Of a stretch of 24,725 bases of DNA, positions 20,701 to 21,438 are shown one piece after another; the first letter of the stretch is position 1; the number at the start of each line of letters is the position of its first letter. The notes under the pieces were generated by a model. It worked only from the letters and a program-made list of their open reading frames with translations, was not told the DNA's origin and did not search any database. Made by a program: the position numbers and the translations under genes. This stretch comes from an uncultured Methanosarcinales archaeon (GTDB taxonomy: Archaea > Nanobdellota > Nanobdellia > Woesearchaeales > DSVV01), in the NCBI GenBank assembly GCA_964523155.1, contig CAZFZC010000001.1, positions 1-24,725 of the forward strand, in the 5' to 3' direction.

Positions 20701-21438
20701 ATAGCCCTTAACCTTTCAAGCGTAGACACACAGGAAGCGCCGGAGCTCAACGCATCAGGCATTGCCGGGCTGTACAGCCTTGCCTTCCAGAGGACTCCTA
20801 TCATCCTTAGGGATTCTCTTGTCTGCGCTGACTGCACTGTCCTGTCATACATGGCCGGCAACCTGACATTCAATGTGACTGGCTGGAGTGGGTATGCTGC
20901 AGCACCCAACAGCAGGCTCATAATATACGACGAGCGCGACAGCCTTGGAGGCGGTCTTGAGAAATACGTCAATGAAACCGTCACATTCTTTGCAAACTTC
21001 TCCAACAGGACTGACGGCTCGCCGGTTGCTGGCTCATGCAACATCACTGTGGACGGAACTGAGCAGGTGATGGCCTTTGACAGCGGGCTTTATACATACA
21101 CGACGACGTTTGCTGCCTATGACGAATACCAGTGGAATGTGTCCTGCACGTCCGCAACCCACGAGCCGCTGAATGCCACAGACACAATTGTCATACTGAG
21201 GCAGAAGGGTGTCAAACACGGCTACTGCACCCTGGAGTACATCCAGACTGCAGACGACCATATAGACGGGTACATATCAGAGGGCGACAAGGTGAGGATA
21301 TTCTGCGAGCCTGGCTATGAGATAGGCGAGGACGAGGAGTTTTCTGTCTCAGTAGTGCCGGGCACAGGAATATCAGCAGACAAGATCCTGAGGTCGCCGG
21401 AGCATATTGTAAGCGAGACAGAGGCAATCTACCCATGA
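14758..21438 (+). CDS. Giant (2226 aa) secreted adhesin-like glycoprotein ending in an archaellin C-terminal half-domain
   Basis: Sec signal MAERWLILCLVLLLLPATAFG|A; two blocks of four beta-rich repeats; cadherin/Ig-like repeats; many N-x-S/T sequons; no C-terminal TM or PGF-CTERM. The last 72 aa align without gaps to the last 72 aa of the FlaB in this window (22 identities). Confidence 0.9.
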   Translation: MAERWLILCLVLLLLPATAFGALERGFRVQQGSALITGLEHNISIAAVSSLERAFVLPPHYSSTGQRDVWPASDTSAMTSHDYADYTIRLTGNNRISVERESTTDNVTVGWQVIEAIDHEFKVYRGLYDATNSGTDFFIPINSTVNASNTMVLVTGHHTSTTGTGLYGRFLFNAYAYNSTHIRVARGDGGVSDCQISWVAVEFNLSRISSFQTGRTLVDGGVHTEANHSKVALSPEVNTSTSLLIFQINVSDGGLDQSSVAGYIAGSNQTDFYPSSCGNSGDTTVDRDVRYYIIDFGPQSGQKAGGQLDYSSNANWYNHSQSLGSDFNLSRAVSFVSLTHDGTGIYHPRPFPNIYLDSASSLNIYRSFYGQEAYLEWQVLELPYYKDRYPPNITQIAPSQGYWDDSWDPVNVTFNCSASDLDNKLANISLYITNSLNLSLSYNSSCSPGAQSGYCNWTLELGKGNYSWKCRAYDEYGNGNFSAERPLRLNFTDTTPPVFTQLPVNRTLEIGDAFSYKINATDNYRMSNFTVNDSAFTISTSGLLENQSALSVRLYSLNVTAIDSYGNTNSSVFWLNVTDTTPPQILYMPNVTELSGKPLGAQFQAEDVTGIHSWRVNDTGGFAINSTGFLSNATALGTGIYWINISINDSFKNSVWRRIWVNITNNPDTRKPWFEPVPVDQYSELGTAFAYDIDAYDDYGIGSYNVNDSTFSIDGFGLLSNASALAVGVYYLNVSVNDTSGNINHTLFLVNVSDTTEPAITYITNITVSYNTSLAVQFNASDLSGIYAWSVNDTDFQISSSGLLENATLLALGYHHLLITVNDTYNNSANETIYVRVIDTLAPWFTDIGNITVEYGDGLDYDINASDDVGITSFGVNDSRFAINLSGHLTNETHLPVAPYSLNISVSDGAANTGWAVVWINVTDTTPPLISAYNQTIEYYSDSEGDFDATDLSGIKKWDVNDTRFTIRNGYLTNLLQLAKGYYRLMISVSDIYDNTRYVEVFVNVTPYTGTNGWRVQHGETRMQGSDTYVDIDSVRTDHAFILLTVSAAGSYDDPNRAGIWAEFVNESRFVLHQFHGLADSNYVGWQVIENPNLRSQHVKHSYGSAETAANVSLSKPADPDKSLVVIEYANSPQTSASNFPEAVWTANMTNTTNVRLYRGMGGNGGSVGFFVVEFNDGSLVQKGSIELAGNNTGYFQLGAPVNVSESWVYFSHSSTSDANGLNDMGVIVTNIDSDTYMAYRSGNGGTKRINWYVVTTPGATNRTGQFQGSPLDSGYYPAGGYSGSQINRSLLDVSQRNTGGGTTYSNLLAAYSIINSTHFYMRRESTGNSHFVSYNVIELPTYEISWNQSNLSLGRVLHMKGNASKTVQILASGLQFSSRVGCTGNCSLIMHNFTNGTNLSDGESVLVNFSCKNSTEGNLSALFSVVSNHDSSPDYLVVACNVTRDRAAPVVNINASQNNTVTEDTMPSVGFNFTDRLSTTANCTLYFDGQAVNASSMLSNNTAHSLKSNTTLADQNYTVYVKCTDESNNTGNSKTLAYSVDTLPPDVNNVSPLPGAVVWRNHAVNITANVTDIVSVKRVYANISWQGGSAWQEMLDPDSDSIYVTAFLNTAWVGRYNVTIAANDSLDHINMSGGTWFNVTPVPDIYPPNVSINQSLNNTLTSDATPSVDFNFTDNASQTAVCTLYFNSTPYNTSVAQNSTQTALTANASIPSGTYDVHINCTDLSSNTGMSEHLVYEIDAVVPAVKNITPAASGEFWLFFSVNITANVTDRHMGSVFANISWAAGSALQEMTDADNNSVYETVFLNTNSVGRYNVTVIANDTLGNTNSTEGTWFLVKANSSINYTLFSPLNHSGDNDGHVLFTYRLSSNYNISNCTLFADNVFLAANTSINETAMQGFRVSLAAGRYSWHVNCTDEYGGTNKSGDSVVSVVPTTGFSSMDLSSVNMNSVSGFYLANAYGRINFTGSLNLSGGPDIDRHVSIALNLSSVDTQEAPELNASGIAGLYSLAFQRTPIILRDSLVCADCTVLSYMAGNLTFNVTGWSGYAAAPNSRLIIYDERDSLGGGLEKYVNETVTFFANFSNRTDGSPVAGSCNITVDGTEQVMAFDSGLYTYTTTFAAYDEYQWNVSCTSATHEPLNATDTIVILRQKGVKHGYCTLEYIQTADDHIDGYISEGDKVRIFCEPGYEIGEDEEFSVSVVPGTGISADKILRSPEHIVSETEAIYP
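14833..15910 (+). repeat. Block 1 of four repeats of about 85-95 aa (xVQxG...R...WxVxE), lectin/tail-fibre-like
   Basis: Repeat ends VGWQVIE, SWVAVEF, RYYIIDF, EWQVLELP. Confidence 0.65.
16234..17780 (+). repeat. Six cadherin/HYR-like repeats of 85-89 aa in (AB)3 alternation
   Basis: DTxxP starts at 16234, 16492, 16759, 17017, 17272 and 17527. Type A units carry Y-x-I-x-A-x-D; type B units carry F-x-A-x-D-x-x-GI-x-x-W-x-VNDT. Confidence 0.85.
17794..18790 (+). repeat. Block 2 of four lectin/tail-fibre-like repeats, paralogous to block 1
   Basis: GWRVQHG...HAFIL vs GFRVQQG...RAFVL; repeat ends VGWQVIE, FFVVEF, WYVV, YNVIELP. Confidence 0.65.
19093..20270 (+). repeat. Tandem duplication of a two-domain Ig-like unit of about 199 aa
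   Basis: DRAAPVV...PSVGFNFTD...CTLYF / DTLPPDV...NITANVTD...QEMLDPD...VGRYNVT is repeated 597 nt later as DIYPPNV...PSVDFNFTD...CTLYF / DAVVPAV...NITANVTD...QEMTDAD...VGRYNVT. Confidence 0.85.

Follow-up and report, generated by a model that had tools for sequence, protein, structure and literature searches.

An archaellin-type domain encoded towards the end of a 24,725-nucleotide (nt) stretch of archaeal DNA from the order Woesearchaeales (contig CAZFZC010000001.1, positions 1 to 24,725; hereafter the window) is divided between two adjacent genes. The tail of a giant secreted adhesin-like protein of 2226 amino acids (aa), that is its last 72–95 residues, is homologous to the C-terminal half of the archaellin β-sandwich (C-half), and the next gene codes for a 121-aa protein with the N-terminal part of the same domain (N-half). 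We consider it probable that the two parts of this domain, separated at a hairpin loop, come together in trans and so fasten a mosaic adhesin to a pilin-like anchor; that confidence applies to the complementation of the two halves, the location of the anchor and the biological role being inferred. The features on which the argument draws are the following.

14758–21438, + strand: gene of the giant secreted adhesin-like protein, 2226 aa (open reading frame and translation), a type I carrier of the C-half
14758–14820, + strand: Sec-type signal peptide of the giant, residues 1–21 (read from the sequence)
21151–21219, + strand: upstream archaellin-like extension of the tail (Pfam alignment from position 76, 18-nt repeat)
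21220–21435, + strand: archaellin C-half, strands b6–b10 with terminal Y-P (BLASTP, C-half profile, AlphaFold model of the paralogue)
21435–21800, + strand: N-half-only archaellin-like gene, 121 aa (Pfam, BLASTP, NCBIfam)
13394–14344, − strand: intact archaellin paralogue, 316 aa (Pfam, 100.5 bits), the reference for both halves

At the level of sequence, the match between the tail and archaellins lies far beyond chance, because the last 127 aa of the giant align with the intact paralogue at E 2e-10 (BLASTP; 22/73 identities, ungapped) and a profile built from eight such tails picks out intact archaellins at their C-termini (E 1e-17 to 1e-23). The Pfam Arch_flagellin profile is matched from position 76 to 158 of 162 (E 2.7e-4, 21.7 bits), a score that drops to 15.0 bits for the full-length giant. 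The protein ends in E-A-I-Y-P with no hydrophobic stretch, and a terminus of the form [LIV]-Y-[PS] is found in every orthologous tail, as in intact archaellins. Sorting signals of the PGF-CTERM/archaeosortase, LPXTG/sortase and lipobox types are absent from the giant, which has no combination of motif, hydrophobic helix and basic tail. At its N-terminus it carries, instead of a class III signal, a Sec-type signal peptide with a short charged start, a Leu-rich hydrophobic core and A-F-G ahead of the predicted cut, in an n-h-c layout that can also be read in the orthologous giants. Its body contains many N-x-S/T sequons and an Ig-like Big_13 match (E 2.6e-14), with weaker Cadherin, Big_7 and Y_Y_Y matches in Pfam. 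A preliminary description of this DNA had quoted the translation of 21220–21438 correctly and had recognized in it the C-terminal half of an archaellin domain, carried by a protein that has a Sec signal and lacks a C-terminal transmembrane segment, PGF-CTERM or lipobox; the ungapped match and this assignment both hold.

The extent that it had given to the tail is borne out as far as it goes, with the homology beginning about 20 residues earlier, at approximately nt 21151. This upstream extension resembles a strand with the pattern 'GS.P...L..-I-I' (Pfam positions 76–95) that is also present in the N-half gene, and the two genes share an 18-nt direct repeat (21187–21204 and 21705–21722, 16/18 identical) that codes for I-V-I-(L/I)-R-Q in both; by our estimate, about 0.03 such repeats would be expected by chance in a 1.6-kb stretch. 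The earlier statement that the sequence preceding the half-domain is unlike the N-terminal strands of archaellins thus needs amending. The residues of the extension fall outside the interface predicted below; they may have been left by the duplication that gave the permuted gene order, or they may form the final strand of the Ig-like domain ahead of them; the repeat itself could be a duplication relic or the outcome of gene conversion or chance. That the extra strand-like stretch (positions 76–95) serves as a temporary self-cap displaced by the N-half is pure speculation.

The N-half gene overlaps the end of the giant gene, its ATG and the giant's TGA sharing a 4-nt ATGA. Its product runs from a class III signal, M-K-K-A followed by the cut, through a hydrophobic helix and a Gly-rich linker to strands b1–b5, and ends in G-Y-Y-T-G immediately before the stop codon. 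The signal has the [KR][KR][AG] pattern ahead of cut and helix, its K-K-A aligning with a K-K-A followed by E in the paralogue, residue 9 of which aligns with residue 1 of the mature chain of PDB 8RH5. The N-half matches Pfam Arch_flagellin from position 3 to 95 (E 1.6e-5, 25.8 bits), is colinear with residues 6–127 of the paralogue (BLASTP E 7e-6) and in NCBIfam matches archaeal flagellin only (1–104), not ArlF/G. No C-half follows it in any frame.

The paralogue, encoded on the opposite strand, shows how the two pieces fit. In sequence searches it matches the solved archaellins 7OFQ, 8RH5, 5O4U and 5Z1L at E 1e-15 to 3e-17, and its AlphaFold model (pLDDT 92.3), for which the top Foldseek matches are solved archaella (E 2.5e-12), consists of a helix (residues 12–54), strands b1–b5 (58–127), an insert domain (131–239) and strands b6–b10 (244–314). 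The N-half corresponds to the helix and b1–b5, and the tail of the giant is colinear with residues 244–316, which comprise b6–b10, so that neither polypeptide holds a complete β-sandwich head: the N-half stops after b5 and the giant supplies b6–b10. The break sits in the hairpin between 'G-Y-x-T' and 'G-x-F-T-x-x-Y', the site of the paralogue's insert of ~115 aa. Inserts of 100–240 aa, with an acidic D-x-D-x-D-G-like motif and sequons, occupy the same b5/b6 hairpin in many intact archaellins of the order (that of the paralogue is encoded at 13613–13965), and short (~190–215 aa) and insert-bearing (~290–440 aa) intact archaellins lie side by side in the same genomes (L001–L087).

The division recurs among relatives. 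In a survey of 28 genomes of the family, queried first with the N-half and afterwards with a profile for each half, 11 of 11 genes that carry a C-half without an N-half directly adjoin an N-half-only gene. Six of these pairs, from the window's own genome (G000) and from G001, G002, G003, G016 and G017, have the order giant then N-half (type I), the giants measuring 1608–2527 aa and bearing Sec-type signals; the other five, from G001, G002, G011, G013 and G017, have the N-half first (type II), followed by a Cys-rich carrier of 311–369 aa with its own Sec-type signal and the C-half at its end. Both arrangements are present in three genomes, and the break falls at the same hairpin in both gene orders. 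The type I junctions vary from the ATGA overlap (window and G002) to a 20-nt overlap (G016, G017), a 1-nt gap (G003) and a spacer of ~60–85 nt (G001).

Beyond the family, the C-half profile has 306 matches among 1.84 billion representative proteins, and among the best 150 of these the complete proteins without an N-half are either giants, the largest of 2746 aa, or small carriers that have a signal peptide. The most distant giant, P0138 (2746 aa, from a 42.5-kb metagenomic contig), again overlaps by 4 nt the next gene, a PF01917 member of 117 aa, in a count of neighbours that leaves out P0012, for which no contig is recorded, and P0146, whose contig measures 936 bp. The pairing thus extends to 12 of 12 carriers, seven giants and five small ones, from different genera. 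The half-domain had been called an orphan in the preliminary description, which was mistaken, the matching N-half being the very next gene (21435–21800); giants with the tag and no N-half gene, which would have spoken against its proposal, were looked for, and an N-half-only neighbour was present in all 12 cases. Orthologous giants (1608–2595 aa) have their last ~600–780 aa in common at 37–46% identity, the remainder being shuffled, and in P0138 the common part is limited to the tail and a repeat of ~300 aa; since domains are shuffled upstream of a shared end, the tail is the constant element on a variable cargo.

Searches were also made from the N-half side: as a single query against a database of 5.8 billion proteins it matches nothing besides itself, and its profile, run over 200 genomes of the order, retrieves almost only intact archaellins (190–620 aa) and is not specific for split genes. 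Four unpaired N-half-only candidates, one from the search of relatives and the rest from that of the order, were rejected: the apparent split at G001:C24 is an artefact of a run of N, the candidate at G020:C115 is cut by a contig end, and at G054:C15 and G072:C57 the genes of small archaellins are broken or frameshifted. The latter two loci (L175, G054:C15:3570–4308, − strand; L176, G072:C57:23715–24440, + strand) are interrupted by frameshifts or TGA; such scattered breaks come from decay or sequencing error and are separate from the conserved split. In a tree built from 74 N-part rows, deep nodes are unsupported and split copies lie on very long branches, and the tree is compatible with one fission or two. 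A derivation of type II cargo from the inserts of intact archaellins, that is fission in place, was also considered, and BLASTP gave no significant match (best E 0.1).

The window's own 1.23-Mb, 90%-complete genome contains only this one split pair, its other archaellin-family genes being intact except for one cut by contig ends. Here an archaellin N-part runs off the end of its contig (C56:6191–7498) and a C-part stands at the start of another (C40:3–509); the assembly has probably divided a single insert-bearing archaellin gene here, and the two parts are no second split pair. The nearest homologues of FttA, at 67–84% identity, belong to metagenome-assembled genomes that bear the labels Woesearchaeota, Nanoarchaeota or Nanobdellota.

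Both halves are under purifying selection: relatives' halves are only 20–37% identical to the window's copies with the frames still open, and among G001, G002 and G003 dN/dS is 0.15–0.23 for both halves, a rough figure with dS near saturation. The arrangement is no assembly artefact, because runs X1, X2 and X3 each yielded, in separate Logan assemblies, contigs that cross position 21435 without insertions or deletions; the three runs belong to one microbial-mat study, and one of them may be the source sample of the window itself. The locus occurs in microbial-mat metagenomes. No repeats of an invertible switch were found around the junction, the only inverted repeat being an imperfect one of 21 nt inside the N-half gene. 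A 17.8-kb Logan contig of X2 matches the window up to 21799 and continues into unrelated sequence right after the stop codon of the N-half; the downstream neighbourhood is therefore strain-variable, and the end of the operon is a rearrangement boundary.

Two further lines of evidence bear on contact between the halves. In intact archaellins, a Cys in the b4–b5 loop and a Cys in b7 occur together in 28 proteins and are both missing in 21, the N-side Cys standing alone in none (the N-side column is unaligned in 14 more). In the type II pairs these positions, although encoded by different genes, vary together as well: three pairs have both Cys and two have none there. Type I N-halves lack Cys, and their C-half partners contribute two, in b6 and b7. 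This pattern would be expected if the halves met as they do in the intact domain, with a covalent link in some type II pairs and a non-covalent one in type I. Moreover, ESMFold2, given residues 28–121 of the N-half and the last 100 residues of the giant with custom alignments of each half, predicts a complex with a score of 0.74 (0.72–0.74 between runs), compared with 0.00 for the best of three controls; in calibration 58 of 80 solved complexes reached the pass mark, as did 2 of 110 mismatched pairs, and with custom alignments these counts apply only approximately. With 235–268 contacts between N-half residues 50–108 and tail residues 25–100, the predicted interface takes in nearly all of both ~70-aa halves and describes one joint domain rather than a single strand or patch, and pLDDT rises from 44 to 70–75 and from 36–40 to 66–67 for the two halves when an unrelated partner is replaced by the cognate one. 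Physical binding of the halves is supported by this result, as a prediction only.

These observations suggest the following sequence of events. A globular domain of the archaellin type (type IV pilin-like), broken at a β-hairpin, would be made as two separately exported polypeptides from translationally coupled genes. The small protein, which keeps the hydrophobic helix and b1–b5, would leave the cell by way of its class III signal, and the giant, ending in b6–b10, through Sec. Outside the membrane the half-domains would co-fold into one archaellin-like β-sandwich, and the giant would thus be tethered to a pilin-like anchor with its helix in the membrane, or in or on the tip of an archaellin-family filament; attachment to surfaces or to host cells would be a likely use in a small-genome DPANN archaeon. 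Export routes, extracellular assembly, anchor site and adhesive role are what we infer. Taken as a whole, a two-gene 'split pilin' docking device, in which any Sec-exported cargo ending in a C-half, be it a giant mosaic adhesin or a Cys-rich protein of ~350 aa, is captured by a class III half-pilin, locked by a disulfide in some pairs, and displayed on the membrane or at a filament tip for attachment to a host or surface, is somewhat favoured, with less assurance than the complementation at its centre.

Where the anchor resides is best approached from the helix. The N-terminal helix is almost invariant in the intact archaellins of the order, 28 of its positions being at least 90% conserved in 32 of them. 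The window's N-half keeps 6 of these 28, type I N-halves in general 4–11 and type II N-halves 11–21, and in the type I helices bulky residues take the place of small core ones. Because so few positions (4–11 of 28) are kept, the type I N-half is presumably not an ordinary shaft subunit. A location in the membrane or at a filament tip is at least as likely as one in the shaft, and the type I anchor could be either membrane-resident or a terminal or minor subunit of a filament. A prepilin peptidase (Peptidase_A24) is encoded on contig C93, and pairs of T2SSE/T2SSF ATPase and platform genes lie on C11, C107, C133 and C46. Of the roles suggested for the tail in the preliminary description, an attachment tag fits the evidence, and attachment to filaments specifically loses support with the lost helix residues; sorting, in the sense of recognition by a processing enzyme, finds no support.

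Several observations weigh against complementation or against the anchoring built on it. Binding of the halves rests on one structure prediction, which may simply reproduce the archaellin fold, itself what the hypothesis proposes, and the last 13 residues of the N-half are absent from the confidently placed interface. The cysteine co-variation comes from few and related pairs; each half alone lies under the gathering score of Pfam PF01917 (25.8 bits for the N-half and 21.7 for the tail, against 29.5); and the copy-like stretch of N-half strand in the giant's tail (profile positions 76–95) is unexplained by the model. As to the filament, no assembly genes lie next to the locus, and the loss of conserved positions from the type I helix argues against ordinary incorporation into the shaft. 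Finally, none of the RNA runs searched holds the locus.

The main competitor, to which we give a minor share of the probability, accepts the linkage of the genes without complementation: the N-half would be an independent minor pilin or a stator-like protein of the ArlF/ArlG type, and the tail an autonomous β domain that binds, for example, archaella or the envelope, the two being co-regulated neighbours. FlaF/FlaG stator domains do have the archaellin sandwich fold (Foldseek 4P94, 5TUH), large adhesin-like genes are often found near archaeal type IV filament genes (PMC13705601), and gene adjacency alone is weak evidence of binding. Yet the globular part of the N-half, ~69 aa and ending after b5, is too short for a full sandwich, and its NCBIfam match is to flagellin only and not to ArlF/G. 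The pieces are, moreover, exactly complementary and broken at the same hairpin in both gene orders, and the cysteines that co-vary across genes, a complex prediction above controls and the pairing in 12 of 12 cases all point away from independent neighbours.

Two other explanations carry far less weight. A single polypeptide, produced by frameshifting at the ATGA, by readthrough or by protein splicing, would amount to a circularly permuted domain with the helix as the giant's C-terminal membrane anchor; it draws on the ATGA overlap in the window, in G002 and in the distant metagenomic contig, and on the C-half preceding the N-half in gene order. It is nevertheless very improbable, for the junction is not conserved (20-nt overlap, 1-nt gap or ~60–85-nt spacer), the order is reversed in five pairs whose carrier has a separate Sec signal, the [KR][KR][AG] class III motif is conserved at the start of the N-half as for a free N-terminus, and no intein-like motifs were seen. 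Least credible of all, and largely refuted, is decay or artefact, with the locus as the remnant of a rearranged or frameshifted archaellin gene or as misassembled tandem paralogues. Broken or frameshifted archaellins do occur sporadically in the order (G054:C15, G072:C57), the apparent split at G001:C24 proved to be an artefact of a run of N, and the metagenome-assembled genome is fragmented (212 contigs); against this stand the same arrangement in seven giants and five small carriers of different genera, at 20–37% identity and with open frames, the dN/dS of 0.15–0.23 and the separately assembled contigs that cross the junction without insertions or deletions. Reassembly of a split archaellin domain in trans remains our preferred reading.

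Upstream of the giant gene, and overlapping its start by 8 nt, lies what is probably the first gene of the operon:

14487–14765, + strand: ArsR/SmtB-type helix-turn-helix (HTH) regulator, 92 aa (Pfam HTH_5, E 2.5e-7; NCBIfam HTH_metalloreg, 62.5 bits, cut-off 55)

Relatives (L088–L092) have at this position a different HTH-like gene of ~185 aa, which overlaps or abuts the giant gene. Near the operon in G001 (L089:1–415, − strand) and G016 (L090:9408–9875, + strand) there is also a gene for a 138–155-aa protein with a class III signal, starting K-M-G-(A/M)-S-T-(I/V)-I; none was seen beside the operon of the window.

DPANN archaea have tiny cells and mostly depend on hosts, and to our knowledge it is largely unknown how they hold very large surface adhesins. 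The anchors usually assumed for archaeal surface proteins are transmembrane helices, lipid tags (PGF-CTERM) or S-layer partners. That a small membrane-anchored partner holds a large surface protein is a known logic, as in the stalk-plus-canopy arrangement of Sulfolobus SlaB/SlaA. If the reading proposed here is right, a pilin-type domain split between cargo and anchor would be a further anchoring principle and a natural counterpart to engineered split-domain tags, and the head domain of archaellins would tolerate fission at its insert-bearing hairpin. The halves, of ~70 aa and ~75–100 aa, make a testable pair for binding and structural work, and their sequence signature could be used for spotting attachment proteins in metagenomes.

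The DPANN superphylum is known for gene fission in which two polypeptides together restore the function; Waters et al. reportedly described split protein genes in 2003 in Nanoarchaeum equitans, a small-genome DPANN archaeon. The DPANN splits known to us concern cytoplasmic enzymes cut in place, whereas here an exported domain is broken, its halves have different export signals and one of them is joined to a giant cargo. To archaellins (ArlB/FlaB, PF01917) both halves are homologous, and the split lies at the site of the lineage's 100–240-aa inserts. Unlike in archaellins, the domain is not complete in any one polypeptide, a Sec-exported cargo of 2100 aa is joined to one half, the helix of the N-half has lost most filament-core residues and each half falls under the family cut-off.

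In the literature searched, including two censuses of archaeal type IV filaments (PMC4858521; PMC13705601, October 2026) consulted for this question, we found no description of a split archaellin or of a half-domain tag; large adhesin-like genes near pilus loci are mentioned there. The closest functional parallel is with PilB and PilC of Streptococcus sanguinis (PMC8179133, PMC9934059), in which a type IV filament system displays a bulky adhesive module by means of a pilin module. There the adhesin is in cis on a complete pilin, whereas here a separate Sec cargo carries half a domain and attachment would be in trans; the giant is no modular pilin of the cis-fused kind, the class III signal being on the separate 121-aa protein. 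In structural terms, the predicted complex recalls donor-strand filaments, namely chaperone-usher pili, archaeal threads (bioRxiv 10.1101/2022.04.26.489512) and cannulae (PMC12518558), in which an incomplete β-sandwich is completed by strands from another polypeptide and very stable non-covalent links are formed at the cell surface (bioRxiv 10.1101/2022.04.26.489512, PMC12518558). Those systems exchange one strand between like subunits that polymerize, whereas five plus five strands of two unlike proteins would here form one heterodimeric domain, as predicted, and the fold is of the archaellin type and not that of the Ig-like usher pilins. In summary, the archaellin/type IV pilin family and the completion of a β-sandwich in trans by donor-strand systems are known; the conserved split of the archaellin domain between two genes is a variation on them.

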